This document shows, in pieces, positions 4,641 through 38,583 of a stretch of DNA of 64,000 nucleotides. The DNA is from Candidatus Woesearchaeota archaeon. Its GTDB lineage: Archaea > Nanobdellota > Nanobdellia > Woesearchaeales > 21-14-0-10-32-9. The notes under the pieces are model-generated. The model saw only the letters and a program-made list of their open reading frames with translations, did not search any database and had not been told where the DNA came from. The first letter of the stretch is position 1. Every line of letters begins with the position of its first letter. The position numbers and the translations under genes are program-made. Where the stretch lies: positions 112,483-176,482 of the forward strand of contig JBLKOK010000002.1 of NCBI GenBank assembly GCA_047602735.1, read 5' to 3'.

Positions 4641-4939
4641 GAGGGTGTAGAGCGGGTATAAGCTGCCTTCTGTCAACCCCCATTAATGGATGGGTTGTGA
4701 TGATATTTTACTAAGCCTCGGTTAAGAGTTGCACCAGTTAGGGCTCACAGTTTCATCAATTTCTATAAACATAGTCAAACACTACTTTCCTTGTCACCAA
4801 GTATCCTTGTTATCATTCCGAGTATAGACTGTGTCTTTTCTGTTTGGTTGCCGCTTGTTTCCAAGCCTCTAACAAGTTAGAGTAACGCTTACGGTGGGCA
4901 GACTTTCCTCCGTTTGACGGGTCATCATCTTCCCTCCCT
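4641..4939 (-). ncRNA. rnpB: RNase P RNA (archaeal type)
   Basis: GC-enriched, ORF-free island. The minus strand reads GGGAGGGAAGATGATGACCCGTCAAACGGAGGAAAGTCTGCCC (CR-I GAGGAAAGUC after a short P3 hairpin CCG-TCAAA-CGG). Near the 3' end it reads GGGGGTTGACAGAAGGCAGCTTATACCCGCTCTACACCCTC (ACAGAA..GCUUA, CR-IV/V-like). The 5' GAGGG can pair with the 3' CCCTC (P1), and TGATGA with TCATCA (P2). Ends are approximate, within about 10 nt. Confidence 0.85.
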
Positions 4940-9111: not shown

Positions 9112-11667
9112 TTATGTTAAAGTCGGTATTCTTGTTTCTAAATTATCTGCATTAGCAGCCAGTACTTCGTATCTGTTTATTACGCTTTGTGCTGCTTCTT
9201 CTCTTGTTATTATACCATCATTGTTTCTATCAAGCCCTCTATTTTGTTGATATGCAATAAGAGGATTTTCTCTATCACAAGCACCTGTTCCGCTGCCGTC
9301 ATTTGTAAACATTATACCTTCTGAATGAACTATAGATTGAGGACAAAGAACAGCAGCGTATGCTTTATCTAGTGTATCTAATTCGCCATAAGTTATTATT
9401 CTTCTCCTAAAATATTCTTCTACGTAATCTAATTGTTCTAATCTGGTCATTTGGGCTAGTTCTTCTACTGTAGTTCCAAGCCATTGCGCAGTGCCGTTCA
9501 TAAATTGAATTAAACCTGTTGCTCCACTAACAGGATTTCTTGTGTCTGGTCTAAATTGTCCTCCTGTTTCAAAGTCCATTATTGCAAGCAGGTGCATTGG
9601 ATCCATGTTTAGTCTCATTGCTATTTCCTCTGTTTTTATGATAAAGCTTTGAGCAGATCCGCTTGTCGGGTCAAATTCTTCTTCTATATCATCAGTTTCT
9701 TCTTCTTGCTCTTGTTCAAGTTCAGGGATAGTAGGAGGTATAATTTCTGAGATTTCTTCTTGTCCAGGTATTTGTATTCCTAAGATATCTTCAAATATTG
9801 ATATAGATGTTCCGTCATAGTATAGTTCTATTGCAAAATTTAAATCAGTTTGCTTATCACAAACAAAGTGATTTATTTGAGGTGCAGTACATGTGTCTAT
9901 CGGGGAGTCTTCGTTGTCTAAATCAAGTAACCAACTAGGATTTAGTAATGAGTCTTTTATTTGAGATGTTGATTTTCCTGTTGCAAACGATACAATATCG
10001 AAATTATCAGATAATAATATGTTTGTTACTAACATGGACGGATTTAAAAATCCAGTTGCTACATCTACAAACGGGATGTTACTAAACAAGTCCACTCCTA
10101 ATACATCATCTACAAATCCTATTATTCCTTGCGAACCAAATATTTCTTGTTCTAGTTCATCTACGAATTCATTTGCTATTTCTTCTAGTTCTTCTTTTGT
10201 TATTATTTTTATTTTTTTCTCAGAGGTTTCTTCTTCAATTAGTAAGTTGAATTCTTCTTCAAATACGAATTCAAATTCTTTTTCTCCATCTAGTTCTAGT
10301 AAGAAATTAACTCTGTATCTGTTATTGTTTATATAAAATTGGTCGTTTATTTGTGATATGTTTGTTTCTTGGTCTACGTTTATGTTACAATAACAATCTT
10401 TTCTTGTTGCTATGCAATCTCTTATGTTTGCTAGTAATTGTAATTCTTGAGTTTCTAGTAAGTAATATATCTTTGATGAGTCTAAGTCTTTTAGTTTTTG
10501 ATATAATAATTGTTCTCCCCTGTTCTTATGTGTTCTTATGTCGTTTAGTTGATCTATTATTTCTTTTTGTTCTTGTATTGGTTCTCTATTTTTGAATCTT
10601 CCTTCACTTACTACGTGTGTATTTGTTTGCATCCAGTTTAGTTGATCTGCACTCCAAAGCCACTCTGATTCAAACTTATAATATATCGGTGTGCTGCCAG
10701 AGTATTCAATTTCAAATATTTCTCTTGGTTGTTTATGTAAACATAATTCATAATCATTTTGTGATAATACTGATTCTAAACTAGTAGTTATAGGGCTATT
10801 TGTTTGTTGTACTAATATTCTTGCTCTCTCAAATGTTTGAAGAGGCGAATCAAAAGTTATTGATTTTTGATATTTCGCTGAGTGGTCTCCTATGCTTGGA
10901 GTTACTCCCTGCGTTAATTGTTCAGCTATTGAAAGGTCTTCATCTAATAAAAATACTAACGGGGTTTGTCCACTTATTCCAGCCGCCATCGCTTCGTCTC
11001 TTGCAGCTCTTCCAACTCCGGCGTATATATCTATTTTTGGTTGACCTCTAAACGCAGAGCCTGTATCCTCTGCTTTGTATATTCCGTTCCAAGGATGATT
11101 TTGAGAGAAATATAAGTAAACATAGGTTTCATAAGGTATGTGACCTGGAGTGTTTGGTATTGGATTTACTGCTATCGTCCATTTTGGTCTAGGATCTGTT
11201 TGTCTACTTGTTATACCACTTGTAAATTTTGTATCAAGTGCTACGCTATCTGCTTGTGTTGGTCTTAGTTGACTGTGGTAAAAAACCGAGTTTTCACAAA
11301 CTCCACTTCCTTGACATTTTATTTCTTCATATACTCCTCTATGTTCTTCAGGTATGCAGCACCATCCTGCTCTTCTGTCTTCAACGCAGCTTCTGACATT
11401 GTAATTATCTCCGTAGTAGTCTACTATTTGTCTTGTAGTTTCAAAGCAGCTTCCTTTTTCTGGACTACACCAACTAGTTTTGTCTTCGCAGGAAGGAGTA
11501 TAGTAAACTGTTGTTTCAACATTTGTATACGTTGGAGATAAGGAATTTATGTTTCTCTCTATTCTTTGTTCTGCTATTCTTATTTGAACTTCATCATCAC
11601 TATATACTACAGGAGATATTATTATAACTGAGAGGATTATTGTTAGTAAAATTATTTTTTTTATCAT
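9112..11667 (-). CDS. Secreted multidomain murein hydrolase: 3D/DPBB (MltA-like) domain + long linker + lysozyme-like lytic transglycosylase domain + EF-hand loop
   Basis: Signal peptide MIKKIILLTIILSVIIISPVVYS; the ATG at 11667 forms an ATGA overlap with the amidase stop. 3D-domain motif, nt about 11017-11517: TVYYTP..IAVNP..GIYKAEDTGSAFRGQPKIDIYAG. Lysozyme-like domain, nt about 9115-9645: MDFETGGQF..SGATGLIQFMNGTAQWLG..QLDYVEEYF. Canonical EF-hand loop DRNNDGIITREE at 9196-9231. Confidence 0.75.
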   Translation of the reverse strand: MIKKIILLTIILSVIIISPVVYSDDEVQIRIAEQRIERNINSLSPTYTNVETTVYYTPSCEDKTSWCSPEKGSCFETTRQIVDYYGDNYNVRSCVEDRRAGWCCIPEEHRGVYEEIKCQGSGVCENSVFYHSQLRPTQADSVALDTKFTSGITSRQTDPRPKWTIAVNPIPNTPGHIPYETYVYLYFSQNHPWNGIYKAEDTGSAFRGQPKIDIYAGVGRAARDEAMAAGISGQTPLVFLLDEDLSIAEQLTQGVTPSIGDHSAKYQKSITFDSPLQTFERARILVQQTNSPITTSLESVLSQNDYELCLHKQPREIFEIEYSGSTPIYYKFESEWLWSADQLNWMQTNTHVVSEGRFKNREPIQEQKEIIDQLNDIRTHKNRGEQLLYQKLKDLDSSKIYYLLETQELQLLANIRDCIATRKDCYCNINVDQETNISQINDQFYINNNRYRVNFLLELDGEKEFEFVFEEEFNLLIEEETSEKKIKIITKEELEEIANEFVDELEQEIFGSQGIIGFVDDVLGVDLFSNIPFVDVATGFLNPSMLVTNILLSDNFDIVSFATGKSTSQIKDSLLNPSWLLDLDNEDSPIDTCTAPQINHFVCDKQTDLNFAIELYYDGTSISIFEDILGIQIPGQEEISEIIPPTIPELEQEQEEETDDIEEEFDPTSGSAQSFIIKTEEIAMRLNMDPMHLLAIMDFETGGQFRPDTRNPVSGATGLIQFMNGTAQWLGTTVEELAQMTRLEQLDYVEEYFRRRIITYGELDTLDKAYAAVLCPQSIVHSEGIMFTNDGSGTGACDRENPLIAYQQNRGLDRNNDGIITREEAAQSVINRYEVLAANADNLETRIPTLT

Positions 11668-12779
11668 GCTAACGGAATCCTCCTTTGTAGTCCACTCATA
11701 ACTTCGTCCCAAGGAAACGCAGGTCCCGGATCTGGTTTATCAGTTGTTCTTTCATCATGTCCAACTATGTGTTCTCTACTTAAAGGTATAGATGGGTGTC
11801 TTGACATTATTTCTGATATTAGTTGAATTGTTGCATCAATTTGTTCTTGTGTATAAGGCTCCCAACACAATTTTCTAGATTCTCTAACATGTGATAATTT
11901 TTCAGCTTCAGGACAAGTTTGTTCTGTTCCCCACCCCATATTAACTAAAGATATTCCAATAGAATTAGGATTCATATTAGTACATATTATAGGAGGATTT
12001 TTTCCTACACATCCTGCATGCAGAGCCATTCTATGTTCTTCTACGAATTGAAAAATAGTTCCATCTTTATCAACTATGTAATGATAAGAAAAACCTTGAT
12101 CATATAGATAATTAAACGGACTTTCAACATTTCTGGATCCTGTATAATGTATAACTATTGAATCCACGACGTTAGTTCCTCTGTTTCTATGTGCAAGTCC
12201 TGGTCTAAATATATAATTATTTTGAGTTTCTCTATAAAATTCTGTTCTTGGTATAGGTGTGTGAACAACCCCATAATAATCCACCGTATCTGTTTTTATA
12301 GGCGCAGTTATTTCTTGATCTAATTCTATTTCTATATTAAATTCTTCGTCTACTTCTACTATTACGTCTTTTTGTGCTAAGTTAACAGGATCATATCTTT
12401 GAAGCTCAGTTGATACCCCTATAGTTACAATCTCAGAATAAGTTTCTCTGTAATCTGGAAAACAATCTTCTTTTATTATTGGAACTGCTAAATTCTCGCA
12501 TTCTTCTCCAAAGATTTGTCCTTCAAATTCAGCAATGTTAAATCCTCTTCTTTCAACTAGTTCTTGTTCTGCGACCGGTAAGGTTTGTTCTACAGTCATA
12601 TCCGTAAATACTTTTGCTGCTTGTACTTGTTCTTGTGTTGCTATTGCTTTTACTGTTGATTGTCCAACTAATTCTACATCAGGTAAGTTCATATTAATTA
12701 TTACTATTACAGCTCCAATCGAGATTAAGAGTGCTAGTGCAAAAAATCCAAATTCTATTTTTTGTGCTTTTTTATTCAT
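11664..12779 (-). CDS. N-acetylmuramoyl-L-alanine amidase (Amidase_2/PGRP fold) with a class III (prepilin-like) N-terminus
   Basis: N-terminus MNKKAQKIEFGFFALALLISIGAVIVII. The C-terminal domain (nt about 11700-12182) has VDSIVIHYTGS, ALHAG, NSIGISLVN and HIVGHDE..KPDPGPAFPW, the zinc-amidase signature of the T7-lysozyme/AmiD family. Confidence 0.8.
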   Translation of the reverse strand: MNKKAQKIEFGFFALALLISIGAVIVIINMNLPDVELVGQSTVKAIATQEQVQAAKVFTDMTVEQTLPVAEQELVERRGFNIAEFEGQIFGEECENLAVPIIKEDCFPDYRETYSEIVTIGVSTELQRYDPVNLAQKDVIVEVDEEFNIEIELDQEITAPIKTDTVDYYGVVHTPIPRTEFYRETQNNYIFRPGLAHRNRGTNVVDSIVIHYTGSRNVESPFNYLYDQGFSYHYIVDKDGTIFQFVEEHRMALHAGCVGKNPPIICTNMNPNSIGISLVNMGWGTEQTCPEAEKLSHVRESRKLCWEPYTQEQIDATIQLISEIMSRHPSIPLSREHIVGHDERTTDKPDPGPAFPWDEVMSGLQRRIPLA

Positions 12780-13243
12780 CTTCTTAGTGGTTTTAAATCA
12801 AAGTCCTCTTCTTTTAGTATTTTTATTTTTACTCTAAGATCTGTTCCTCTTGGGTTTGGAACTAGTAAGTCTGGAAGTATTACATCTAAATTTCTAAGAG
12901 CTCTCGAATCTACATTCGTATGTCCGTTAATATATATGTACCAGGTTGTTCCAGGATTATTTTCTGTTAGTACCTTGTTTGCGTTTTCTATTGCTCTTTG
13001 TACTCCGTGAGTGTTGTAATCATCTAGCATTTGTTGATATATTTGTTTGTCTTCGTATTGTTGTGTTAGTACTGTTCTCGTTTGATATTTTGTTTCAAGT
13101 AGCGCTCTGTGAGTGTTAAATTCTTGTTCTTTTTTATCTCCGTGACTAGAAACTATGAAGCTTAATATAAATCCAAGTATTATGATAAGTCCAATAAATA
13201 TAAATCCTGCCATAAAATCTATGGCTATTGCTCTTTTGTTCAT
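12776..13243 (-). CDS. Type IV pilin-like protein (class III signal peptide), function unknown
   Basis: 155 aa, N-terminus MNKRAIAIDFMAGFIFIGLIIILGFIL. ATGA overlaps on both sides. Confidence 0.6.
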   Translation of the reverse strand: MNKRAIAIDFMAGFIFIGLIIILGFILSFIVSSHGDKKEQEFNTHRALLETKYQTRTVLTQQYEDKQIYQQMLDDYNTHGVQRAIENANKVLTENNPGTTWYIYINGHTNVDSRALRNLDVILPDLLVPNPRGTDLRVKIKILKEEDFDLKPLRR

Positions 13244-13704
13244 CTTAAATGGGTTATCCTCATCACTGTTGGTCTTTGTTCATGTACATTTACTGGTACA
13301 AGATTTACTTCTATTACTTGTCTTTGTCTTAGTTGATTTACGTTATCTGTTCTAAATATCTTTGTTTCATTTTCTAAGTCTATTAGTATTTCAACTCCTC
13401 TTTCTTGTGCTGTTAGTAAAGGAAGGCATGCTCTAAATCTTTCTTCTGCTAATTTATTTGGATCTATTGTTCCAGCTATAACTCTTCCCGCGTCGTTTTG
13501 GTATGCAAAACAATTTTCTGAGTTTAAAAGCCTGTTTTGATATATCTGAGTTTCTAAGTCTGGAAATATTCCTGCAGCAGAATCTTCTATTGCGTTGCTT
13601 ATGTTTGCTAAGAAAAAGAAATATATCATTAAGAAGGGTACTATTATAATTATAAAAAATGCTATGTGATCTAAGAGTCCTATGCTAAATCCTTTTTTGT
13701 TCAT
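13240..13704 (-). CDS. Type IV pilin-like protein (class III signal peptide), function unknown
   Basis: 154 aa, N-terminus MNKKGFSIGLLDHIAFFIIIIVPFLMIYFFF. 4-nt overlaps on both sides. Confidence 0.6.
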   Translation of the reverse strand: MNKKGFSIGLLDHIAFFIIIIVPFLMIYFFFLANISNAIEDSAAGIFPDLETQIYQNRLLNSENCFAYQNDAGRVIAGTIDPNKLAEERFRACLPLLTAQERGVEILIDLENETKIFRTDNVNQLRQRQVIEVNLVPVNVHEQRPTVMRITHLR

Positions 13705-14450
13705 GGTAACATTCCTCTAATCGCATTTATTATTGGTTCTGGGTCATCTTCTTTTACCATAACTCTTAGATTTCTTTGATCTGTTGGTATTAGTTCAAAT
13801 TCTTCTCCTTGTTCTATTATATTACATGCTAGTCTTCTGTGTCTTAGTGATGAGTCTGAATTAAAGTATTCTACTGAATTAACATCTCCTTTTACTACTT
13901 GTATCTCTATTAGTCTATCTTCTGAATCAGTTATTGATATATGCCTTGTAGATTCAGCTAATTCTTGTACTGCGCTTGCTATTTCTGGCAGATCTATTGA
14001 AGATATTCTTGGTCTTAAAAAAACTGTGTTTTCTGTGTATCTTAAATCGCATCCTTCGGTTATTTCTTCAAAGAATAAAAGATTTCCTTGTTTTCTTATA
14101 GGTATGCTTTTTCTATTTACAACATTTGCTTCTAGGGTTTCTACTCCCCCCATTCTAAGGTATCTGTATGTGGATGAGCCTGTGTTTCCATAAACTGTTA
14201 CTATTGATTCTCTTATTGTTATTCTTAGCTCATCTGATCTTGGTACATATACTATGTCTACGTCTCCTGGCATTCCTACCACGGTTGCAAGTGCTAGTCC
14301 TAGGTCTCTTGCTACTACTCTTTCAAGTGTGTTTTCTTCTAGTTGAGATACGACGTTCCAGGTTCCTAGCGCTATTACTAGTCCTATGATTAATCCAGAA
14401 CCTACTAATAATAATTGAAAACTACTATCTTCACCCATTTTTTTTAGCAA
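13701..14450 (-). CDS. Probable pilin-like / N-terminally anchored secreted protein
   Basis: 249 aa. N-terminus M(L)KKMGEDSSFQLLLVGSGLIIGLVIALG from the TTG at 14450. An alternative ATG at 14438 would remove the basic leader. Confidence 0.5.
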   Translation of the reverse strand: MLKKMGEDSSFQLLLVGSGLIIGLVIALGTWNVVSQLEENTLERVVARDLGLALATVVGMPGDVDIVYVPRSDELRITIRESIVTVYGNTGSSTYRYLRMGGVETLEANVVNRKSIPIRKQGNLLFFEEITEGCDLRYTENTVFLRPRISSIDLPEIASAVQELAESTRHISITDSEDRLIEIQVVKGDVNSVEYFNSDSSLRHRRLACNIIEQGEEFELIPTDQRNLRVMVKEDDPEPIINAIRGMLP

Positions 14451-15196
14451 CTACCTTTAAAACATAGCTGTATTACGTTTGGGTCTTGTACCTTTTTAAC
14501 TTTTACGCTTACAGGTCCGTCTATGATTAAGCTTTGATAACCAGATATTATAGGAATTATGCTTGCTCCAAGTTCCATTGTGTTTTGAACAAAAGATACA
14601 TGCACAGTATCTGATGATTGTCTATTGCTTCTTAAAAGTATTGCGCTGTTAATCCAATAATGATCTTCCCTGTTACTAAAAAGGTTATTATTAGGATCTG
14701 GATCCTCAAATATTTCCGACATAGATACTCTTAAAGGAACTGAATACTCTACATCTTGACAAATAAGATTTGAACATCTTATTTCACCTATATTATTTGG
14801 AGGAAATGCTCCCGATGGGTCAAATCCCGTACAAAGACACGTACAAGTAGTTAGTTGTCCACATTCACTAGGTCTTTGCATTATGTTTCCTCTAAGCCAC
14901 GTATTTCCAGATTCATAACCTCCAGATATACTATATGAAGGATTTTCATATTTAAAATCAGCCATAGCATTAAAAGTTATTAGCGCTGTGTTTTGCGGTA
15001 TTTCAAATACTTGTTCTTGTTCTTCTCCTACTTCAAGTTTTGCTACTTCTTCTAAGAACGTGTTATATTCTTGCAATAAAACATTATCTGAATTATCTAA
15101 TAGGTTAGATACGAAGTTAAAAGTCAATATTACACAAGCTATAAAGATTATTAATCCCATACCTTGTGTTAATAGTGTACTTGATCCTTTCTTCAT
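14444..15196 (-). CDS. Type IV pilin-like protein with a Cys-rich globular domain
   Basis: 250 aa, N-terminus MKKGSSTLLTQGMGLIIFIACVILTF. Cys cluster ECGQLTTCTCLCTG..IRCSNLICQD. Confidence 0.6.
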   Translation of the reverse strand: MKKGSSTLLTQGMGLIIFIACVILTFNFVSNLLDNSDNVLLQEYNTFLEEVAKLEVGEEQEQVFEIPQNTALITFNAMADFKYENPSYSISGGYESGNTWLRGNIMQRPSECGQLTTCTCLCTGFDPSGAFPPNNIGEIRCSNLICQDVEYSVPLRVSMSEIFEDPDPNNNLFSNREDHYWINSAILLRSNRQSSDTVHVSFVQNTMELGASIIPIISGYQSLIIDGPVSVKVKKVQDPNVIQLCFKGSC

Positions 15197-15200
15197 TTTT

Positions 15201-15560
15201 TTATGTTCTTGATGCTAGGAATTGTATACATTGAGTTCTTGTATAATAGCATGCGTCTTGATCTCTATCATACTTAAATCCAAATTGGTTTTCACATGGA
15301 GCTGCTTCGAGATTTGCTCTACAATAAACAGTTCCATCTATTTGTACTCGTGTATTATCATCACTACATGGACAAGGATTGTCTCCTTCTACTCCAGCCC
15401 CTATGTTTTGGAGCCATTTATCTGCGATGACGCCTATGTCTTCTATTCCTTGGTCTGATCTTTGGTATAATTGCCAAGCTATAAGTAGTAAAAGTAATGT
15501 GATAACTATAGCTATAACTGTTCCCCACGTACTTGTTTGTCCTTTTTTGTTTTTCATCAT
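15201..15560 (-). CDS. Small type IV pilin-like protein with a 6-Cys domain
   Basis: Start reassigned to the ATG at 15560, giving MMKNKKGQTSTWGTVIAIVITLLLLLIAW. The track start at 15614 overlaps the upstream gene. The C-terminal part has six Cys (PCPC..YC..PC..AC..QC). Confidence 0.6.
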   Translation of the reverse strand: MMKNKKGQTSTWGTVIAIVITLLLLLIAWQLYQRSDQGIEDIGVIADKWLQNIGAGVEGDNPCPCSDDNTRVQIDGTVYCRANLEAAPCENQFGFKYDRDQDACYYTRTQCIQFLASRT

Positions 15561-15576
15561 TTTAATTTTTTTTACC

Positions 15577-16392
15577 TCAACTAATACATTTAAAATCATC
15601 ATATAATCTTTCAAGTCTTAATGGAGGAGATCTTGCTCCATCAACACAGTTTGCTGTAAGCATACCATCGCTTGTTTGACATATTGATCTTCCTAATCCA
15701 AACAAACCTGTTCTTGGAGCTACAGGTATTACACATAATGTGTCATCTACTTTTAAGAAATATAAATGATTGTTTTCTTCTATGTTTCTAATTCTTATTG
15801 GATCTTGTTGAGTTGATGAAGTCATAACGAAATGAATATTGTTATCTGACGATCTTAGTCTCCTCCTATTATCATTTACTGAGAATTCTATTGTTGAAAC
15901 TGTTTGAGGAGAAGTCACGCTTTGGAAACTGTTAACCTGTGTGTTTCCTTGTATTATATCTCTTAGTTGTTCTACTTGTTCTATTTCGTGAAGATTACAA
16001 AGTCTTACTCCTCTACCAATTTCAGATAAAGTTAGTGCTGCTGAGCCTGACTTTGGAAGTACTTCTATCCTGGTTGTTTGACCTTGTGATGTAAATCTTA
16101 TGTTGTTTGATTCAAACATCTGTTTTGTAAACATATCTATTCTATGAAGACAATTTTGATTAGATTGCATTATTTCTCCAAGTTCTGAAGCTATTTTTGA
16201 AGATTGTTGAGCTAATGTTATTGTTTGAGTTATTGTTGAGTCTGACCTACTGTCTCTGTCTTCTAAGTTAAATATCCTATCTATTTGATGTGTTGTAAAA
16301 TCAAATAATGATCCTGTGTAAAAGTGTATGAATAATAGTAGTGCTAGTAATAATAATATTATTTTTGTAAGCATACTCATTGATTGAGTCAT
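15577..16392 (-). CDS. N-terminally anchored extracytoplasmic protein, function unknown
   Basis: The ATG at 16392 (MTQSMSMLTKIILLLLALLLFIHFY) forms an ATGA overlap with the upstream micro-ORF. Hydrophobic anchor, but no clear [KR][GA] prepilin site. Confidence 0.55.
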   Translation of the reverse strand: MTQSMSMLTKIILLLLALLLFIHFYTGSLFDFTTHQIDRIFNLEDRDSRSDSTITQTITLAQQSSKIASELGEIMQSNQNCLHRIDMFTKQMFESNNIRFTSQGQTTRIEVLPKSGSAALTLSEIGRGVRLCNLHEIEQVEQLRDIIQGNTQVNSFQSVTSPQTVSTIEFSVNDNRRRLRSSDNNIHFVMTSSTQQDPIRIRNIEENNHLYFLKVDDTLCVIPVAPRTGLFGLGRSICQTSDGMLTANCVDGARSPPLRLERLYDDFKCIS

Positions 16393-16529
16393 AATAACAA
16401 CCCCCAAGTAGATAATATGTTACCATGTATTTGTCTTATCACTATTGCTATAACTATTAAGAATATTACTAATAGAAGTATCTTTAGAAGTCGTGATGTT
16501 AACATTGCGTTTTTTATTTTTTTTATCAT
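16389..16529 (-). CDS. 46-aa single-pass membrane micro-protein (below the ORF-track cut-off)
   Basis: Own translation: MIKKIKNAMLTSRLLKILLLVIFLIVIAIVIRQIHGNILSTWGLLL. Its stop TGA overlaps the next ATG (ATGA). Same strand as the cluster. Confidence 0.45.
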   Translation of the reverse strand: MIKKIKNAMLTSRLLKILLLVIFLIVIAIVIRQIHGNILSTWGLLL

Positions 16530-16566
16530 CTTTTTTAATTATACTAATTGTATTTCTTAATTGTGT

Positions 16567-18021
16567 TTAGTTATATATTGTACATTCTCCTGATAAAGCA
16601 TTTATGGGCATAACCATTAAACTATTATTATAATTATACATATCATACAAATATTCATTCGCAGTTTTTTGAACAAAAAAACCTGCAGCCGCTCCCCCAA
16701 CTGCTCCAATAACAAATCCTCCTAAAGAACAAATAGGAGTAGCAACTGAAGTTACAACTGCTGAAAGACATCCAAGTGTTACTGCCCCTGAAGTAGCTGT
16801 AGCCCATTGGAGACTAGTTTGAAATACATTAGACCATCTGTTTATATTCTCTCCTTTAGTAGAAAATATTGCTATTGCATAAGTATAATTTGAATATATA
16901 TCATCAATTGTTGGAGGAGGAGCTTGAATTCTGTTTGTTAAATAATTAAAATAAGAGTTCCTTGATATTCCAAGTTCTGCTAATAAGTCTGAGTCTTCTC
17001 CTACAAATCTATTTTCTAAATCTTCTATAAAATCTGATACTGCTTCGTTAAATTCTTCTATGCTTCTCATATTTGAAAAATGCATTTGTAATAAGTTTGG
17101 TATTTGTTCTTCTAATATGAATCTTTCAAGTTCTAATCCTGCATGAAGTCTTACAACCCCGTTTTTCATATCAAACATTATTAGTAAAGAATTAAACCTG
17201 TCCTCTTCGTTTAAGTTTAGTTGTTCTGTTAATCTTCTTGCAGCAGTTCTGTCAATATTATTAAATTCTTGTGCTGTTACTAAAAAGAAATCTGCTCCTG
17301 TTGCAGTATTTAGATTTATTGCAAAGTCATTTATTTTTATTCTTGTTTCTTGTGATAAAAATCCTGCGTAGTCTTGTATAAATGGAGATCCAGCGTCTCT
17401 TGTAACTTGACTATATCTTAGTCTTGCATCATCTGAAAATATAAATTCGTAATGATTCCATTGATAGCTCCCACCTATATATCTTTGTGTTCCTCCACCA
17501 TATAATACCCCTCGATTATAGTCTGTTTCTATTATAAATCCTAATATTTCAGAAGCAGAAATAATATGAGGTTGTCTACTATAAGTGTTATCAGCAGCAA
17601 ATTGATCTCCCTCTATTTGATAAAAATCTCCTCCTGTATCCATGTTATTTGGTATTCTAAATGTATAACAAATTTTACACATATTACTATCTTCGTCATG
17701 ATCGGAAAATATATTGTCTACTCTTCCTTCAGCATACATATACCAACACTTTGACATTAGGTCTGCTACTTGATATTTTACTTGTTCTCTGTTTCCTCTA
17801 AGAGTTCCTTCATTAAATGTATTACAAACAAGAGGAGTAATTCTTTCTACTTTACCAAATAAACCAAGATCTACTACTGCTTGAGTTCTAAGTAACACAC
17901 TAGCTCTACAGGTATCTTCTGTTGCTTTTCCTAAAAGTCCTTGATACATCATAGTTATAGTAACTAGCAGTATTACTGAAACGATTACGGCTATGATTAA
18001 TTTTCCTAGTGTACTTTCCAT
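16567..18021 (-). CDS. Membrane protein with a central TPM-like domain and a Gly-rich C-terminal TM region
   Basis: 484 aa with an N-terminal TM (KLIIAVIVSVILLVTITMMY). The segment DYAGFLSQETRIKINDFAINLNTATGADFFLVTAQ..NSLLIMFDMKNGVVRLHAGLELE resembles the TPM (YgcG/TLP18.3) domain. C-terminal hydrophobic Gly-rich helices (GGFVIGAVGGAAAGFFV). Confidence 0.5.
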   Translation of the reverse strand: MESTLGKLIIAVIVSVILLVTITMMYQGLLGKATEDTCRASVLLRTQAVVDLGLFGKVERITPLVCNTFNEGTLRGNREQVKYQVADLMSKCWYMYAEGRVDNIFSDHDEDSNMCKICYTFRIPNNMDTGGDFYQIEGDQFAADNTYSRQPHIISASEILGFIIETDYNRGVLYGGGTQRYIGGSYQWNHYEFIFSDDARLRYSQVTRDAGSPFIQDYAGFLSQETRIKINDFAINLNTATGADFFLVTAQEFNNIDRTAARRLTEQLNLNEEDRFNSLLIMFDMKNGVVRLHAGLELERFILEEQIPNLLQMHFSNMRSIEEFNEAVSDFIEDLENRFVGEDSDLLAELGISRNSYFNYLTNRIQAPPPTIDDIYSNYTYAIAIFSTKGENINRWSNVFQTSLQWATATSGAVTLGCLSAVVTSVATPICSLGGFVIGAVGGAAAGFFVQKTANEYLYDMYNYNNSLMVMPINALSGECTIYN

Positions 18022-18022
18022 T

Positions 18023-18130
18023 CTATATTATTCCTGCTATTTTGCTTACTGCATATATCATTAAGAGTATTGTTGCTATAGTTACAATTAATACTACAAA
18101 TGTTTGTATAGATGCTTTTTTGTGTAGCAT
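18023..18130 (-). CDS. 35-aa minimal pilin-like micro-protein (below the ORF-track cut-off)
   Basis: Own translation: MLHKKASIQTFVVLIVTIATILLMIYAVSKIAGII. It has the KKA + hydrophobic helix pattern of the neighbouring pilin-like genes. Its stop lies 1 nt before the next ATG. Confidence 0.4.
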   Translation of the reverse strand: MLHKKASIQTFVVLIVTIATILLMIYAVSKIAGII

Positions 18131-18179
18131 ATAGTATACTAGTATATTAAGAACTTATAAATTTTGTTGTTTTAGCTAG

Positions 18180-19331
18180 TTAAATAATCTCACAAGTTTC
18201 TAACCTTTGAGCATTTAAACCACTTACAGGTTCATCATTAATATGAGATACTAAACAAAGACCAGTAGGTTCTATAAGCGTAGTTCCAACAGTACCCCTA
18301 CTCCAATTATTTAAAGTATAATAATAAGACCAAGTTAAATTATTATCAACCCCTGGATTTACATCAGTAGTTTGTATTTGAGATTGACAATTATACTCAT
18401 ATGTAAAAAAATCAGGACCTCTCATAACTTGATTTATTTGACAATTAGCAATAGGAACCTCATTACCAGACGATTTGTTATACCATTGAGCTAAAGCCAT
18501 ACACGCCACGAACTGAGGATTAGAGTCACTACAAAAAGAATCTTTCCTTTGGCTATCAGAAGATTCACTTGTTAAACTAGATACTGGAGGAATAGTATCC
18601 TCACCAGAAGCAGACCCAGATTCTTCAATTAAATAAAACACAGTTCTAGAACGTAGCTCTTCTGAAGGCTCAAGAATATCTACAGTGACTCTTGCTCTTG
18701 GAGTTTCAATAATATTTCTTAATTCAGTATAAGTTACTTCAAAAGGACTATGTATATTAGAATCACACCCCTCAAATTTAGATAAAACAACATTATATTC
18801 GGGAAACATCACAGGTCCACTTATTTCTTCAACAGTCATATTACACAAAGCAAATCTAGGCGAACTAACTTGTACACGAATGTACCCTCCTATCTGATTG
18901 CCCAATATACTTAACTCCATATTATTAGCTAAATCGATCCTCCTATCAAGATGAGGATGATAACTAAAAATACTATGTTGTAAAGGCTCTCTTGTTACTT
19001 GTTCTTCTTCAGTTTCGTTTTGTTGACCAGTTTGATTACCAATTTCACCAGTAAGATCACTTTCTGACCTGTTTTCTCTGTTTCTTAAGTCTTCTGGAGT
19101 TACACAACAAACTTGATCTCTTCTTTCAGCTTGTCCTGGTAATAAACAAGTACTTGCATATTGCATCTCTGCTGGAAAATTACAACTAGACCTACATGTT
19201 CCAGGACATGTTTCTATGTTAGTTCTTGCATTATCTACATATCTATAAAGTACAAGAACGCTTATACCTAATATAACTAAAACAATTATTATTTTAAGAA
19301 CCTGTGACCAAGTATTTGCTTTTTTGTTCAT
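18180..19331 (-). CDS. Type IV pilin-like protein: prepilin N-terminus + 6-Cys knot + about 300 aa extension
   Basis: 383 aa, N-terminus MNKKANTWSQVLKIIIVLVILGISVLVLY, then ETCPGTCRSSC..STC..QVCC. This is the same C..C..C..C..CC pattern as the three mini-pilins downstream. Confidence 0.6.
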   Translation of the reverse strand: MNKKANTWSQVLKIIIVLVILGISVLVLYRYVDNARTNIETCPGTCRSSCNFPAEMQYASTCLLPGQAERRDQVCCVTPEDLRNRENRSESDLTGEIGNQTGQQNETEEEQVTREPLQHSIFSYHPHLDRRIDLANNMELSILGNQIGGYIRVQVSSPRFALCNMTVEEISGPVMFPEYNVVLSKFEGCDSNIHSPFEVTYTELRNIIETPRARVTVDILEPSEELRSRTVFYLIEESGSASGEDTIPPVSSLTSESSDSQRKDSFCSDSNPQFVACMALAQWYNKSSGNEVPIANCQINQVMRGPDFFTYEYNCQSQIQTTDVNPGVDNNLTWSYYYTLNNWSRGTVGTTLIEPTGLCLVSHINDEPVSGLNAQRLETCEII

Positions 19332-19341
19332 TTTAAAAAAA

Positions 19342-19599
19342 CTATGTGTCTCGCCTCATAAGACAACATACATCTCCTTGAACATTGCATCTAGCCCCCG
19401 AGTTTACTATTCCTTGAACGTCATCACATGCTTGACGAGACATACAATCAGCATCGGTATTATCTCCTAAGCTTTCACAAGTAGTGCTTCTTACTAGTCC
19501 GTCTGTTGATCTAAATACAAATACTGTTAGAATTACTAAAACCAGCATAGCTATTGCTGCCATAACCACAATGTTTATACTAAGTTCTGCTTTTTTCAT
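19342..19599 (-). CDS. Mini type IV pilin-like protein with a 6-Cys knot (paralog 3 of 3)
   Basis: 85 aa: MKKAELSINIVVMAAIAMLVLVILTVFVFRSTDGL.. then TTC..ADC..QAC..ARC..VCC. Confidence 0.65.
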   Translation of the reverse strand: MKKAELSINIVVMAAIAMLVLVILTVFVFRSTDGLVRSTTCESLGDNTDADCMSRQACDDVQGIVNSGARCNVQGDVCCLMRRDT

Positions 19600-19612
19600 T
19601 TATATTTCACCA

Positions 19613-19897
19613 TTAATTTGAAGTGTTTCCAATTAATCTAGCATGAGGTCTACAACAAACAAAACCAGATTGTGAACACAAATCCGCTCCATTACCACCA
19701 CCAATTGTCGATCCATCATCAGTGCGACATTGAGTATTTAAAACACATGATCCTCCTTGTCTAAGACAATCAGTTTCTGTTCTAAAAGAATCAGACGTGT
19801 TGAAGAATACAAATATCATTATTACAAGTATTAAGAGTCCTATAATTATAAGTACAATCATAGATATGCTTATTTCTGCTTTTTTATTTATTTTCAT
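19613..19897 (-). CDS. Mini type IV pilin-like protein with a 6-Cys knot (paralog 2 of 3)
   Basis: 94 aa: MKINKKAEISISMIVLIIIGLLILVIMIFVFF.. then TDC..GSC..TQC..DLC..VCC. Confidence 0.65.
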   Translation of the reverse strand: MKINKKAEISISMIVLIIIGLLILVIMIFVFFNTSDSFRTETDCLRQGGSCVLNTQCRTDDGSTIGGGNGADLCSQSGFVCCRPHARLIGNTSN

Positions 19898-19907
19898 TTT
19901 TTAAATA

Positions 19908-20186
19908 TTAACTGCTGCTATCTGGAATCATACAACAACGCTGATTCGATTCAGGACATGCCGCTGTAGGATGAATAAGACCATTTTGAGCTCTACAAGA
20001 CTGTCTTCCAGCATCAGTGTTATCTACACATTGAACCATTATATTTTGGCCAAGTCCATCATTACAAGTAGTTGCTCTCCTTAATCCATCTGATGATCTG
20101 AATACAAAAACTGTTAAAATTACGAGAACAAGCATTGCAATAGCTGCCATGACGACAACGTTTATGCTTATTTCACCTTTTTTCAT
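19908..20186 (-). CDS. Mini type IV pilin-like protein with a 6-Cys knot (paralog 1 of 3)
   Basis: 92 aa: MKKGEISINVVVMAAIAMLVLVILTVFVFRSSDGL.. then TTC..VQC..QSC..AAC..RCC. The N-terminal 35 aa are nearly identical to the 19342-19599 product. GGAGGT lies 8 nt upstream of the ATG. Confidence 0.65.
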   Translation of the reverse strand: MKKGEISINVVVMAAIAMLVLVILTVFVFRSSDGLRRATTCNDGLGQNIMVQCVDNTDAGRQSCRAQNGLIHPTAACPESNQRCCMIPDSSS

Positions 20187-20241
20187 TTGATTATACCTCC
20201 ATTATACGATAATAATTTTATTTAGTCTTATATAAAGTTTA

Positions 20242-20739
20242 CTATATGCACAGTCTTAAAAGCATTCTTGCTTGACTAAGACTTAATGGTATGGGCTGTG
20301 TTCTTGTGGTAAATAGTTGTTGTGAGTCACAGTTTCTTTCTATATTTGTTATATTTGGACCTCCTATTATTTCTATTACTATGTTATATCTATAGTTGAA
20401 TTTTCCTAGTGTGTCGTTTGCTACTTTTTCTATTGTTTTGTTTAAATATTCGCAAACAGAGTCGTCGTCGTTACACATAAAGTTTGGTTGTCTTACACAT
20501 ATATTTATTAATTCGTTTATTTTTAAGTGATTTTGATTTGCATTTTTACAGTCTGTGCTTGATTCCATTAAAACCGGTCCGAAGTTTGAAGGTATATTTT
20601 CATCTAAGAATTCTTCTACTGCATCTACTCGCTCTTCTGCGTCTCTTACTGTAAATACTGCTATGAATAAGAATACTACTGCTAGTACTGCTATTATTAG
20701 TACTAGTCCTATCATTTCCATTTGTGCTTTTTTTACCAT
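20242..20739 (-). CDS. Type IV pilin-like protein (class III signal peptide)
   Basis: 165 aa, N-terminus MVKKAQMEMIGLVLIIAVLAVVFLFIAV. Confidence 0.6.
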   Translation of the reverse strand: MVKKAQMEMIGLVLIIAVLAVVFLFIAVFTVRDAEERVDAVEEFLDENIPSNFGPVLMESSTDCKNANQNHLKINELINICVRQPNFMCNDDDSVCEYLNKTIEKVANDTLGKFNYRYNIVIEIIGGPNITNIERNCDSQQLFTTRTQPIPLSLSQARMLLRLCI

Positions 20740-21209
20740 AGCGTCACTACCTCTAATAATGCGAAGTGATATACATCTTCTAAAGGATCATTTACTAATA
20801 AAGGTATTTGAATCGGTGTTCTTGATGAAGCATTTTCGTTTGTTGGTGTTGCAATAGATATTACATCAGATGTATGGCTTGGATTTATTATATGTAATGT
20901 TATATTTGTGTTTCCAAAACGCTCCACTTTATACGAAGGGTTTTGTTCTAGATATTTAGCAAATGCTTTTGCTTTGTATAAATCTATACATCTTTCTACT
21001 GCTGTTTGTCTTCTTGTACATCTAAGTTCAGGTAGATTTCCTAGTTGGCTTGCTATTGCAAGTGCTGAGAGTTCTAATCTTTCTTGTGCTTGTCTTGGTA
21101 TTTCATCTCTTTGAAAATTTGATGCAATTATCAATCCAAATATTATTATTATGCTAAGTATTATTAGCACCATTATTGTTTCTGCGCTTTGTATTTGTGC
21201 TTTTTTCAT
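20733..21209 (-). CDS. Type IV pilin-like protein (class III signal peptide)
   Basis: 158 aa, N-terminus MKKAQIQSAETIMVLIILSIIIIFGLII (resembles the Q-x-S-x-E class III motif). Confidence 0.6.
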   Translation of the reverse strand: MKKAQIQSAETIMVLIILSIIIIFGLIIASNFQRDEIPRQAQERLELSALAIASQLGNLPELRCTRRQTAVERCIDLYKAKAFAKYLEQNPSYKVERFGNTNITLHIINPSHTSDVISIATPTNENASSRTPIQIPLLVNDPLEDVYHFALLEVVTLW

Positions 21210-21218
21210 TTTTTTTAT

Positions 21219-22142
21219 CTAATATATTGTCGGGCATCCCAGTCTTTCTAATTCTCTGTTTCTTTGATCTAACTCAATTGATTTTGTCCTAAATGTTGGT
21301 AAGTCTAAATTAAAATCTAAATCTATATTAGTATTGTTATATAGAGATTGGCAGTTTGCTGAGAGTTTGTCTGATATGTTGTCTTTTCTTTCTGATAAGA
21401 CGAATTTCATTCTTTCAAAGCTTTGATTTATTTTTTGAAAATTACAATTTGCTAACTCGTATTCTCCTGTAATTATTGCTCCTAGTGCCATTTCTTGTGA
21501 GAAAAAATTAAGCGAGTTGCCGTCATCAAATATTATTTGTCCATTTGAAGTGTTTATTTTTATTACATCTATGTTTTGCGTTGAAGTACTCGAATCTGTT
21601 GGAGTCGTAACATACACTACTTTTCTATGATCTCTTGCTGCAATTTCTGCATCAGAATACCCTCCTATAGATTTTGAGAATATACTTGGTAACCAGTTAT
21701 GATAGCTTGTAAGAGCAGAGTTAAATACGTAGTGAGTGTTTGTATCAGTTAGTAGGAGTGTTGATGTTGTTAAAAAAGGAAGGTTTTCTCTCAGAGTCAA
21801 TGTTGCTAGCTGTGAGTTTCCTATTATTCTTGGCGTGAATACTATTGAGTTTTCTAGGTATTGCGAAGACGAACTTCTTATTTGTCTAAATTCGTGTACT
21901 CCTTCTCTGCAACTAAATTCTAGTTCGTAATTTGCTCTTTGGTGGAGTTGTGCTGTGTTTGGGTTTGATTGTATTGATTCGAATATATTTGACATTCTCT
22001 CAGTTATTGTTTTTGCTAAATCTTCTTGGCTTGATTCTGTTCGATTGTTTATTAGCATAATAAAAAACATCATTATTGCAAATCCTGCTATTAAAACAAA
22101 TATCCAATTAAAACTTACTTCTACTTGTGCTTTTTTATTCAT
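21219..22142 (-). CDS. Type IV pilin-like protein (class III signal peptide)
   Basis: 307 aa, N-terminus MNKKAQVEVSFNWIFVLIAGFAIMMFFIML. Confidence 0.6.
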   Translation of the reverse strand: MNKKAQVEVSFNWIFVLIAGFAIMMFFIMLINNRTESSQEDLAKTITERMSNIFESIQSNPNTAQLHQRANYELEFSCREGVHEFRQIRSSSSQYLENSIVFTPRIIGNSQLATLTLRENLPFLTTSTLLLTDTNTHYVFNSALTSYHNWLPSIFSKSIGGYSDAEIAARDHRKVVYVTTPTDSSTSTQNIDVIKINTSNGQIIFDDGNSLNFFSQEMALGAIITGEYELANCNFQKINQSFERMKFVLSERKDNISDKLSANCQSLYNNTNIDLDFNLDLPTFRTKSIELDQRNRELERLGCPTIY

Positions 22143-22600
22143 GGGAGAGAAACGCTTACTTTTCCTTGTCCTATTCCTTCTAATCTAAATACGAATCTTC
22201 CTGCTGTTGAGTTTATACACAATTGCTCTGGAGGGCGTTCTATAGATGGATTTTGAAATAGTGGTTCCATAAATCTTCCTTGTCTTAAAAAGACGTTTTC
22301 TGCTTCAGCAGTCATACTTGCATCTATTACAGGATCAGGATTTTCTCCTGGTGGTCCTCCAAAGCATATTTGATCGTAGTTACAAGGCGCTCTTAGATTT
22401 ATTTCTTGTACGAATCCAAATCTTGTGTTTCTTTCTATGTCTGACCCTAATTGTGTTTTGAATCTTTCATATTCTACTTGGCATCCTTGTCCCATTATGT
22501 TAGATACTGATCTAAATCCTATTATTAACATTGCTCCAACTACTATTATCACCATTATGTATATGAATACTTGTTGTGTTTGTGCTTTTTTAGTCATCAT
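22139..22600 (-). CDS. Type IV pilin-like protein (class III signal peptide)
   Basis: 153 aa, N-terminus MMTKKAQTQQVFIYIMVIIVVGAMLIIGF. Its start overlaps the 3' end of the 3026-aa gene. Confidence 0.6.
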   Translation of the reverse strand: MMTKKAQTQQVFIYIMVIIVVGAMLIIGFRSVSNIMGQGCQVEYERFKTQLGSDIERNTRFGFVQEINLRAPCNYDQICFGGPPGENPDPVIDASMTAEAENVFLRQGRFMEPLFQNPSIERPPEQLCINSTAGRFVFRLEGIGQGKVSVSLP

Positions 22601-35262: not shown

Positions 35263-35292
35263 GACACTACTCCCCACTCATTACTAAACATG

Positions 35293-38300: not shown

Positions 38301-38583
38301 TTATTCCTTCAGCGCTTGCAGCGTAGGGTCCTTGTTGTGATTGAAAGAATGTTCCTCCTTGTCTTCCCATCTCTATTAGTGATTCTTGTACTGCTTGTTC
38401 TAAGCAAAGGTTAACGTAATAGTTTATTGGTCCTGATTCTAAGTATTCTTGAACTGCTTCTTGTGCTTGTTGTTGTAGTTCTGACATAGAAACAGAGTTT
38501 ACTAGCATTAACATAAATGAAACTACTATTAGCATAACTAATCCTAGTAATGCAAATATTGCTACTTGACCTCTTTTTTTCAT
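35389..38583 (-). CDS. Giant (1064 aa) protein with a prepilin-like N-terminus and a large Cys-rich ectodomain
   Basis: N-terminus MKKRGQVAIFALLGLVMLIVVSFMLMLV (KRG-Q + helix). Includes a cadherin/He_PIG-like motif ITITPFGVDPDNRPVEYSYS. The C-terminal third is very rich in Cys, Trp and Tyr. Confidence 0.75.
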   Translation of the reverse strand: MKKRGQVAIFALLGLVMLIVVSFMLMLVNSVSMSELQQQAQEAVQEYLESGPINYYVNLCLEQAVQESLIEMGRQGGTFFQSQQGPYAASAEGITHIPYNESTEEFNVSYGVLRLYSSPPQSHFPNVCPSIQINAPHYPLPRTPLSFFTRMNYANYCSSPTFNYTGGGFLGVNVFPRLCFNNSINTDPILIDDSPRVFVGCSGILSRSIFYDKNLSTEYLLSRRILNKTIDCINFSIFQEIDGHNVTFLENEPRDVHIIYGVEGFMTNLQLPFRVQLRGHIPVITSYNFSYYSNVRLQEIQLYLYELLRKETINPFFNILRDYNTLTIPNIGRNLFLEGFQLEIINFTDTNKAYKWDRLIKLTDTRSQIFGQNFTYYTAIQNRNPVLDYMNPSAHPELNIIVFENQTITITPFGVDPDNRPVEYSYSRWKENETNILNLTRSGCSPPLSTLDQIKSCMETQPFTGRLWTNSILFDQTKQSANYTPTIQDAGYHELRAIVKDLAGRIDFQDIKILVIDLPKANVEVSNVYNYSFDDMSIENPILIDGNKTTLPVMIPGSLDNFWWRLTRNLELIKEYTTTDLTHTLPFSYNILNIRNQIINRTGNYNMELKLTFNPGMPGVPPVEVTNSYDFEVKVCLPHRSSVPAFPYNNDTDPFLANHTCCDEDFNRISRSFVCFDEISYGTPDKLFERVQNLTEIEEQGIRDHVYDFSVTPTEIADINDLKPYQLNNVFRLDFKRNCDGSRGNICGGDITYELTSHQVCPFSENQRYQCSGLIEEFSHDELSCTNFNYTQMFDVDTRDIVEENDWFYHEDLFTGKIVDVTGISFCIKNTPAPSTRDRIGYNISDAHLLCNNAACDGEGQCRDTRFSDCTCIPERTACQDQYDATWIGEFCFYGCDTYSSCNYNFNETMPCTKDEYESNGGYCFEEVIGPSWSYGQCYVNLTEQCTPDLHYTEIFADDWCWFEEVGFAPWTEYGEELEFDPYWGDFLTVGEYWVDLNNVTCQYPDPSQRCNSVTGECNMISETKTFLENVDSWGDINIPPHLLAYPEYGDWECTVDGWSYGWW

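Follow-up and report, generated by a model that had tools for sequence, protein, structure and literature searches.

Extracellular lytic transglycosylase (LT) proteins of Woesearchaeota and Pacearchaeota have been described as the DPANN 'murein-like lytic transglycosylase' family fam00969 and interpreted as enzymes directed at the walls of bacteria (Castelle et al. 2021, PMC8204110), in a study that cites Rinke 2013 and Castelle 2015 for earlier reports of LTs in DPANN. The same reading, with bacterial walls or bacterial partners as the object of DPANN LTs, is shared by several works (PMC8204110; PMC10936187; PMC11537232; PMC5864196), and a survey of modular archaeal peptidoglycan hydrolases likewise describes archaeal, often secreted proteins that have bacterial or phage ancestors, owe their architecture to domain shuffling and show enrichment in Nanoarchaeota, with haloarchaeal hydrolases that kill bacteria experimentally (Strock et al. 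2025, PMC12352652). Here we analyze the gene at positions 9112..11667 (minus strand) of a 64,000-nucleotide stretch from a Candidatus Woesearchaeota assembly (GCA_047602735.1, contig JBLKOK010000002.1, positions 112,483 to 176,482; hereafter the window). Its 851-aa product combines an MltA-like domain at the N-terminus with a phage-type LT domain at the C-terminus, and the gene immediately upstream encodes a predicted murein amidase. We consider it likely that the product is a secreted murein glycan-cleaving enzyme that works with this amidase on bacterial walls.

As described, the fam00969 proteins are very large, reaching 3,000 aa, and have one LT domain each; it is by this description that they are set apart from the present protein. 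The survey of archaeal hydrolases required a catalytic domain together with a recognised cell-wall-binding domain, its tested examples being haloarchaeal M23 peptidases (PMC12352652), and the present protein lies outside that definition because it carries no recognised wall-binding domain. In the published literature on DPANN and archaeal hydrolases that we searched, there was no MltA-type family in DPANN, no pairing or fusion with a pilin-anchored amidase, no double head of an MltA-type and a phage-type LT, and no such enzymes in a pilin-like cluster. The domain combination and the conserved amidase/3D gene pair are new here. The novelty of a foreign substrate, implied by an initial annotation of this DNA, was overstated, as such a substrate was already the reading in print for LTs of Woesearchaeota and Pacearchaeota (PMC8204110) and for archaeal hydrolases (PMC12352652); the idea that DPANN archaea attack bacteria or feed on them is likewise published, and nothing is overturned by this locus because the general idea was already in print.

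Outside the archaea, the two heads of the protein resemble two described enzyme types. MltA and LtgG (LT family 2, GH102; PDB 2ae0, 2pi8, 6qk4, 7esj) share with the N-terminal head a barrel plan in which a subdomain is inserted between an N-terminal strand and the 3D segment at the C-terminal end, and the likeness extends to the 14 best fold matches, to a 3D match above cut-off and to equivalents of D297 and D308. Beyond the 3D segment there is hardly any likeness in sequence (E 0.3-3), the insert is here a small Cys-rich helical unit, and Asn replaces the first Asp of the 3D motif; whereas MltA is a bacterial outer-membrane lipoprotein, the present protein is archaeal, predicted to be secreted, and bears a conserved extension of 370 aa. 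The C-terminal head is 35-49% identical to LTs of phage virions (9udh; the internal/pre-ejectosome protein of cyanophage A-4L/A4, 9k2v; PHROG 196; phiKZ gp144), with which it shares the FET-G, ATGLIQF and AYxxNxG motifs, the Ca-type loop and the placement at the C-terminus of a carrier. In phages that carrier is a tail or ejection protein, whereas here it is a second LT, encoded on an archaeal chromosome with no phage context in the window.

Lytic transglycosylases are encoded in bacterial pilus, flagellum and secretion-system operons. The present gene resembles such envelope-machine enzymes (e.g., MltE for type VI secretion; PMC5841429) in its position within or at the end of what looks like a surface-filament cluster. 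The bacterial enzymes, however, open the producer's own wall for assembly, whereas the producer here has no murein, and for this reason the wall opened would have to belong to another cell. Family 3 LTs with an EF-hand (Slt35/MltB, SltB1-3; PMC12547810) are established examples of a Ca-binding, EF-hand-type loop inside an LT catalytic domain, but there the loops are 17-residue insertions between α10 and α11, whereas the Ca-type loop found here has the canonical 12 residues and is located close to the C-terminus of a domain of family-1 type.

The gene and the features of its product that carry the argument are the following, in window positions:
9112..11667, minus strand: whole gene, 851 aa, comprising signal peptide, MltA-like domain, Cys-containing middle region, acidic linker and phage-type LT domain.
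11599..11667, minus strand: putative Sec signal peptide, aa 1-23 (MIKKIILLTIILSVIIISPVVYS, followed by DD), read from the sequence, with equivalent n-, h- and c-regions in the orthologues.
10933..11535, minus strand: MltA-like domain (LT family 2, GH102-type, double-psi beta-barrel), aa ~45-245, from the predicted model and fold matches.
10990..11145, minus strand: Pfam 3D match (PF06725), aa 175-226, 30.0 bits, including D201 (in AEDTG) and D213 (in KIDIY).
11029..11031, minus strand: codon of Asp213, the predicted catalytic Asp, aligned with D308 of Escherichia coli MltA and invariant in 16/16 members.
9154..9651, minus strand: LT domain (goose-lysozyme/SLT-like, family-1 type), aa 673-838, from PDB 9udh, fold, PHROG and invariant residues.
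9568..9570, minus strand: codon of Glu700, the predicted catalytic acid/base, invariant in 43/43 relatives and aligned with the FETG motif of 9udh.
9196..9231, minus strand: EF-hand-like 12-residue loop DRNNDGIITREE, aa 813-824, within the LT domain, with the family consensus GLDxNxDGxITKxEA.

The minus-strand open reading frame (ORF) spans 11712..9112, and its ATG at 11667 yields the 851-aa product. A TTG start at 11712, which would give a longer protein, was rejected in favor of this ATG because the orthologue alignments all begin at that Met. The reading frame, the motifs quoted in the initial annotation and the coordinates it gave for the loop were all recovered from the sequence. The N-terminus looks like a classical Sec signal, a resemblance shared by the orthologues, which supports the earlier prediction of a secreted protein. 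A scan of the product against NCBIfam gave no match. The 851-aa fusion was present on five independently assembled contigs, which derive from at least three runs of sequencing and differ from the window and from an NCBI copy in one residue, E800D; an assembly artefact was rejected on these grounds.

Two lines of evidence, from family profiles and from structure prediction, converge on the N-terminal head. PF06725 was matched with 30.0 bits, above its curated gathering cut-off of 23.8, and the domain modelled alone with 16 homologues reached a predicted local distance difference test score (pLDDT) of 93.9 and a predicted template modelling score (pTM) of 0.88. Comparison of this model with the PDB using Foldseek revealed that the 14 best fold matches all belong to the MltA family (E 5e-6 to 3e-3, TMq 0.42-0.50, probability 0.99-1.00), comprising Burkholderia pseudomallei LtgG and the MltA proteins of E. 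coli, Acinetobacter baumannii, Neisseria, Caulobacter and Agrobacterium, with further double-psi beta-barrel proteins ranking below them. The fold assignment needed structure prediction, since the N-terminal family searched against the PDB by sequence and profile returned sub-significant MltA matches only. Within the domain, a Cys-rich helical insert occupies aa ~60-140. In the profile alignment to E. coli MltA (chain 2ae0_X), D201 falls on D297 and D213 on D308, the latter being the residue mutated in PDB entries 2pjj and 2pic, titled 'MltA-D308A'; both Asp residues are invariant in the family, D213 in 16/16 members. Together with the model, these observations allow aa ~45-245 to be assigned confidently as an MltA-type (family 2) lytic transglycosylase, its activity being predicted. 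The initial annotation had described a 3D/DPBB domain; the 3D match holds, whereas the domain is not a short 3D module but MltA-like over its whole length, with Asn in place of the first Asp.

The C-terminal head was recognised both by sequence and by fold. The SLT profile (PF01464) scored 18.9 bits in the full-length scan, just below the cut-off of 21.3, and 22.0 bits for the isolated domain, while PDB 9udh ('bacteriophage lytic transglycosidase'; our literature search found no publication for this entry) was matched by sequence at E 4.5e-28. Foldseek again placed 9udh first (E 1e-10, TMt 0.78), followed by phiKZ gp144, MltE, MltF and Slt, with a pLDDT of 90-97 over aa 670-840 in the model. 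Strong matches were also obtained to the PHROG family 'baseplate hub' (PHROG 196, 1e-33) and to phrog_4928 (3.7e-37), both at C-terminal positions of large virion proteins, and matches in BFVD and the PDB add cyanophage internal and pre-ejectosome proteins. The domain carries the motifs FE700TG, ATGLIQF (aa 716-722) and AYQQNRG (aa 805-811), and across 43 aligned relatives E700 and the A, T, G, L, Q and N residues of the ATGLIQ and AYxxNxG motifs are invariant. In the model, Glu700 lies at the C-terminal end of the helix formed by aa 690-700. By sequence and model, aa 673-838 is a family-1/GH23-type lytic transglycosylase, closest to phage virion-associated enzymes and of predicted activity, in line with the lysozyme-like domain first proposed. 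On each of the three points at which the initial annotation was open to computational refutation, the outcome went in its favor: matches to hidden Markov models (HMMs) were found and the catalytic residues, including the Glu expected for this head, proved invariant. No second LT or 3D domain was detected elsewhere in the window, including its 3026-aa protein, when the family HMMs were run against all six-frame ORFs.

The putative Ca-binding loop that the initial annotation placed at the end of the protein is present at 9196-9231 as DRNNDGIITREE, but it is not a separate EF-hand domain. The HMMs EF-hand_1, _5 and _6 scored 12-14 bits against cut-offs of about 25 and matched only 13 loop positions, and under PROSITE PS00018 positions 1-12 fit while position 13 is Ala, which is disallowed; in the model, helices 802-808 and 822-838 flank the loop. 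The alignment to 9udh passes straight through it (NRGLDRNNDGIITREEA versus NKGADLNKDNAITKYEA), and the consensus GLDxNxDGxITKxEA holds across the LT family with the first Asp invariant, for which reasons we regard the 'EF-hand' as a loop built into the LT fold.

The gene upstream provides the third activity predicted at this locus:
11664..12779, minus strand: partner gene, 371 aa, with a pilin-like N-terminus (MNKKA followed by QKIEFGFFALALLISIG) and an Amidase_2 domain (N-acetylmuramoyl-L-alanine amidase of the T7 lysozyme/AmpD/PGRP fold; PF01510).

Its Amidase_2 match is strong (1.4e-28, 100 bits), and in nine amidase orthologues H211, H341, D350, six Cys residues and the MNKK start with its hydrophobic helix are invariant. 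By analogy with AmpD and T7 lysozyme, we take H211, H341 and D350 to be Zn ligands. It is unusual for a murein amidase to follow an N-terminus of pilin type. The ATG of the 3D gene (11667-11665) overlaps the TGA of the amidase gene as ATGA, which bears out the coupling reported earlier, and the order of an Amidase_2 gene followed by a 3D gene with overlapping frames recurs in 5/5 lineages (the window, L001, L002, L086 and L088). Furthermore, at least ten representatives (P0165, P0168, P0172, P0175, P0178, P0179, P0188, P0190, P0194 and P0227) unite a pilin-like N-terminus, Amidase_2 and the 3D family in a single chain, and this 'Rosetta stone' relation argues that the amidase and the 3D protein act together. 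GDSL/SGNH esterase domains are joined to further members, and an FGE-sulfatase domain to one (P0173, P0186, P0193), which points to a modular toolkit of wall-active domains. An esterase partner that removes O-acetyl groups would make sense in such a toolkit, because lytic transglycosylases require a free, unmodified C6-OH on N-acetylmuramic acid (MurNAc) (PMC5077204).

The same conservation bears on the idea that one or both heads are non-catalytic glycan-binding adhesins, tethering the cell to a bacterial wall, chitin or S-layer glycans. The Asn that replaces the first 3D Asp in all members would fit such a role, as would the presence of non-catalytic double-psi beta-barrels (expansins, barwin-like proteins, PA4485) lower in the fold list and the setting in an adhesin-rich cluster with giant surface proteins. 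The catalytic positions, however, have been kept over deep divergence (D213 in 16/16, and E700 together with the invariant or almost invariant GLIQ and AYxxNxG motifs in 43/43), the partner amidase retains all of its predicted Zn ligands, and the specificity of Amidase_2 for the bond between MurNAc and L-Ala indicates murein rather than chitin. We therefore find binding without catalysis improbable.

The distribution of the two heads differs. A word-indexed search returned 15 homologues of 496-652 aa, all of which stop at about position 615 of the query and none of which (0/15) carries the LT domain. An exhaustive profile search extended the family to 296 representatives (E <= 1e-3), and screening of the best 150 of these 296 revealed one further LT carrier, P0166 (669 aa), whose LT domain is 58% identical to that of the window, including the junction and the C-terminal tail, compared with at most 49% for bacterial and phage relatives. 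The P0166 locus (L088) is syntenic with the window, with Amidase_2, a 4-nt overlap, the 3D+LT gene, the RPA gene and the ABC transporter in succession and Topo VI nearby. In distance and neighbor-joining (NJ) trees of 81 LT-domain sequences with 60 bootstraps, the LT domains of the window and P0166 were sisters in 60/60 NJ replicates on a long isolated branch, about equidistant from Alphaproteobacteria, Chloroflexota and other groups, and they grouped with the pilin-LT proteins of Nanoarchaeota in 1/60. On these trees the domain has a branch of its own that singles out no donor. By housekeeping neighbors, the closest relative is the LT-less L001 (RPA 79%, ABC ATPase 87% identity) whereas the LT-bearing L088 is distant (60% and 56%), so that the LT module is patchy in its occurrence. 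It is an accessory addition to a lineage-typical protein, and its patchiness reflects either an old fusion with repeated losses or an exchange of 3' ends between lineages. Recent horizontal transfer of the LT segment is unsupported, given that its GC content at third codon positions (GC3) is host-like and that its identity to the P0166 lineage (58%) is close to that of RPA (60%).

The same LT family also occurs behind a pilin-like N-terminus in two metagenome-assembled genomes (MAGs) of Nanoarchaeota, in proteins of 311 aa and 515 aa (MNKKAASILMIIFE and MNKKAMSVLMVIFE):
L007 394-1329 (JAHJGQ010000067.1): pilin-LT protein, within a cluster of small MNKK-type genes.
L014 2539-4086 (JAHJDB010000032.1): pilin-LT protein, within a cluster of the same type.

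The L007 cluster terminates at an orthologue of the RPA gene of the window. The presence of pilin-LTs in similar clusters of two Nanoarchaeota MAGs makes murein-lytic modules recurrent cargo of such clusters. Among the 120 best database matches to the LT domain of the window no pilin-like N-terminus was found, these matches being proteins of bacterial or phage style. In addition, an LT-bearing contig of ~4.4 kb (L017/L018) occurs twice among the deposits of one study, once in a Bacteroidales MAG and once in a 'Candidatus Woesearchaeota' MAG, with identical match coordinates and zero distance; as its binning is ambiguous, this locus was not used as evidence.

That the gene might not be archaeal at all, but come from a contaminating bacterium or phage, from a wrongly binned contig or from a chimeric assembly of an archaeal gene with a phage lysin, is suggested by the nearest non-DPANN LT relatives, which are bacterial and phage proteins of 45-49% identity, and by the double binning of L017/L018. 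Against this, an archaeal RNase P RNA (RF00373, 116 bits) was found at 4650-4938 (minus strand), between the ABC transporter and the A-ATPase genes, and the genes of the window include A-type ATPase subunits and an RPA-like OB-fold protein. The gene order around the target is kept on L001, a 320-kb JGI contig, and on L002, an NCBI MAG contig whose orthologue is named 'Candidatus Woesearchaeota archaeon' and which shows gene-for-gene synteny with the window; the common order runs from pilin-like genes through a TPM-domain protein, further small genes, Amidase_2, the 3D protein, RPA, the ABC transporter and the RNase P region to the A-ATPase. The GC3 of the LT-coding segment is 0.196, compared with 0.14-0.20 in neighboring genes, the fusion recurs on independent contigs from several runs together with a point variant, and a second, 58%-identical fusion lies in the syntenic locus beside Topo VI. 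The window is archaeal, as the initial annotation held, and its host is a Woesearchaeota-type DPANN archaeon; the conserved loci and the GC3 of the LT segment also speak for a chromosomal gene inherited vertically. Contamination or chimerism is rejected on the strength of the RNase P RNA, A-ATPase, RPA, conserved gene order and host-like GC3, and we regard it as so improbable that it hardly enters the argument.

Between the two heads lie the following:
9823..10932, minus strand: conserved middle region, aa 246-615, with six invariant Cys residues, from the family alignment; low model confidence.
9652..9822, minus strand: acidic low-complexity linker, aa 616-672, forming the junction to the accessory LT module, from composition and pLDDT.

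The initial annotation had placed a 430-aa acidic linker between the domains. This description does not hold, as aa 246-615 is a conserved region with cysteines that some 300 relatives have in common, with Cys309, 418, 425, 427, 593 and 603 invariant in the family alignment, and the linker proper is confined to aa 616-672. This segment contains 32% Asp+Glu and no Lys or Arg, is disordered in the model (pLDDT <50), is missing from 15/15 close homologues and occurs in a shorter version in P0166. An aromatic insert of about 40 aa interrupts the middle region at aa ~322-360 (~10590-10705, minus strand; GSTPIYYKFESEWLWSADQLNWMQTNTHVVSEGRF, beginning GSTPIYYKFESEWLWSAD), and is otherwise found only in the homologue P0005, in two tandem copies, with none in the remaining 13 homologues. 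A small binding module is one possibility for this insert.

Upstream of the amidase, the locus continues as a run of small genes:
12776..22600, minus strand: upstream run of small and medium genes, mostly with class-III-signal-like N-termini, from the N-terminal motif.

The target is the final gene of this minus-strand run, as first noted, and the motif M-x-K-K-[A/G] followed by a hydrophobic helix of about 20 residues occurs in 14/19 cluster genes (the amidase included) against 1/30 genes outside; the same motif is found on a 1064-aa protein (35389..38583, minus strand). Such a start, short and charged with a [KR]-[GA] cleavage motif ahead of the helix, resembles the class III signals of archaeal type IV pilins. 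L001 and L002 keep both the gene order of the cluster and its N-termini. The target itself appears to have a Sec-type signal and not a pilin-like start. Within the run, three tandem paralogues of 85-94 aa (19342-20186, minus strand) combine a pilin-like N-terminus with a C-terminal half containing 6-8 Cys, and have counterparts in L001 and L002. Four giant predicted surface proteins follow, all on the minus strand, at 22590-31670 (3026 aa), 31762-35277 (1171 aa), 35389-38583 (1064 aa) and 39510-44531 (1673 aa). The first three are essentially without Pfam matches, the C-terminal end of the 1673-aa protein is formed by a polysaccharide lyase family 14 domain (3.2e-39), and no LT or 3D domain is present in any of the four.

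To our knowledge, archaea make no murein. Amidase_2 chemistry is specific to the MurNAc-L-Ala bond and LT chemistry also requires MurNAc, whereas pseudomurein contains no MurNAc, and the C6-OH on which formation of the 1,6-anhydro ring depends is missing from its talosaminuronic acid. With a producer that has no murein, and with pseudomurein offering no MurNAc to either chemistry, the substrate should be a bacterial wall. In the mechanism that we envisage, the protein would be exported via Sec, and its two transglycosylase heads, separated by ~430 residues, would cleave bonds between MurNAc and N-acetylglucosamine, the first (aa ~45-245) as an MltA-type enzyme with Asp213 as its catalytic residue and the second (aa 673-838) as an SLT/GH23-like enzyme with Glu700 as acid/base and a built-in Ca-type loop. 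The second head would be akin to the C-terminal enzymes of phage tail-hub and ejection proteins, which pierce the wall locally, while the coupled Zn-dependent MurNAc-L-Ala amidase would strip stem peptides. In combination, the three activities could open the sacculus locally at a contact site. Such opening at cell-cell contact is favored by the phage-tail affinity of the second head, by an anchored partner and by the location of the gene in a cluster for surface proteins, and its purpose may be attachment or penetration, feeding or killing.

A further and more tentative proposal, possible though well short of likely, is that the pilin-like cluster forms a surface filament or anchor with terminal murein-demolition cargo, an organelle that would breach bacterial walls. 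The demolition kit would consist of a pilin-anchored amidase and an MltA-like transglycosylase, with phage-type LT or SGNH esterase modules as options, and would be analogous to phage tail lysins but delivered by an archaeal type IV pilus-like structure.

Several observations weigh against this account of an active, pilin-associated murein enzyme. On the side of the enzyme, the first 'D' of the 3D motif is Asn168 (IAVNP), an invariant Asn in 16/16 members, which amounts to a family-wide deviation of the MltA-like head from the canonical sequence. Its resemblance to MltA in fold is moderate, with TMq 0.42-0.50 and a root-mean-square deviation of ~10 Å across the two-lobed enzyme, and the 370 aa of region 246-615 have no Pfam match and a low-confidence model. 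Pfam scans revealed no LysM, PG_binding, SH3 or other recognised peptidoglycan-binding domain in the protein. E. coli MltA was crystallised with chitohexaose (2pi8), which indicates that GH23/MltA folds can bind chitin-type glycans. The activity of the protein and its family members is one that we infer from sequence and models, and the bacterial partner is likewise presumed. On the side of the cluster, the resemblance to pilins is that of the N-terminal motif; the cluster proteins of the window gave no pilin or class-III-signal Pfam match even at E up to 10, and no prepilin peptidase, pilus ATPase or platform protein was found within the 64-kb window.

The ordinary-looking Sec signal of the target, with no pilin-like anchor of its own, also suits a diffusible enzyme of the same chemistry, used for bacteriocin-like killing of competitors or for harvesting muropeptides and amino sugars from dead walls. 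Precedents exist, as killing of bacteria by peptidoglycan hydrolases that archaea secrete is documented (PMC12352652) and Pacearchaeota have been proposed to feed on dead-cell peptidoglycan (PMC11537232), and the patchy LT module recalls the gain and loss of weaponised hydrolases (PMC12352652). The amidase/3D pair, however, is not patchy but a conserved core at the end of a surface-protein cluster beside housekeeping genes, and in many lineages the whole unit lies behind a membrane- or pilin-type anchor. The cell-wall-binding domain typical of diffusible lysins is missing, and the window, itself a small sample at 64 kb, showed no genes for uptake or catabolism of muropeptides. A freely diffusing enzyme thus appears rather unlikely to us.

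Other parts of the window hold genes that stand apart from this locus. Bacterial-type genes were noted at 60991-63103 (minus strand), 53257-54369 (minus strand) and 47681-50149 (plus strand), comprising two enzymes of the oxidative pentose-phosphate branch (glucose-6-phosphate and 6-phosphogluconate dehydrogenases) together with a soluble glucose/sorbosone dehydrogenase and DNA gyrase subunit A. Toxin-antitoxin-like genes with PIN, HEPN and PIN_2 domains lie on the plus strand at 44879-45265, 45713-46117 and 54697-55113.

Most of the DPANN archaea, an abundant group, have yet to be cultured, and dependence on a host is assumed for them; the hosts of Woesearchaeota are essentially unknown. Murein-specific enzymes in an organism free of murein are among the few clues at the sequence level to a bacterial partner. 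The present locus sharpens this clue, since three predicted murein-directed activities are co-encoded and translationally coupled, the core pair is fused in some lineages, and the setting is pilin-like. Domain identities, fold matches, conserved catalytic residues, archaeal context, gene pairing and fusions are established for it here, and the resulting protein set can be used in studies of host range and mechanism and supplies candidates for new muralytic enzymes. If pilus-linked breaching is true, this Woesearchaeal lineage and its pilin-LT relatives would be cross-domain episymbionts or predators of bacteria.

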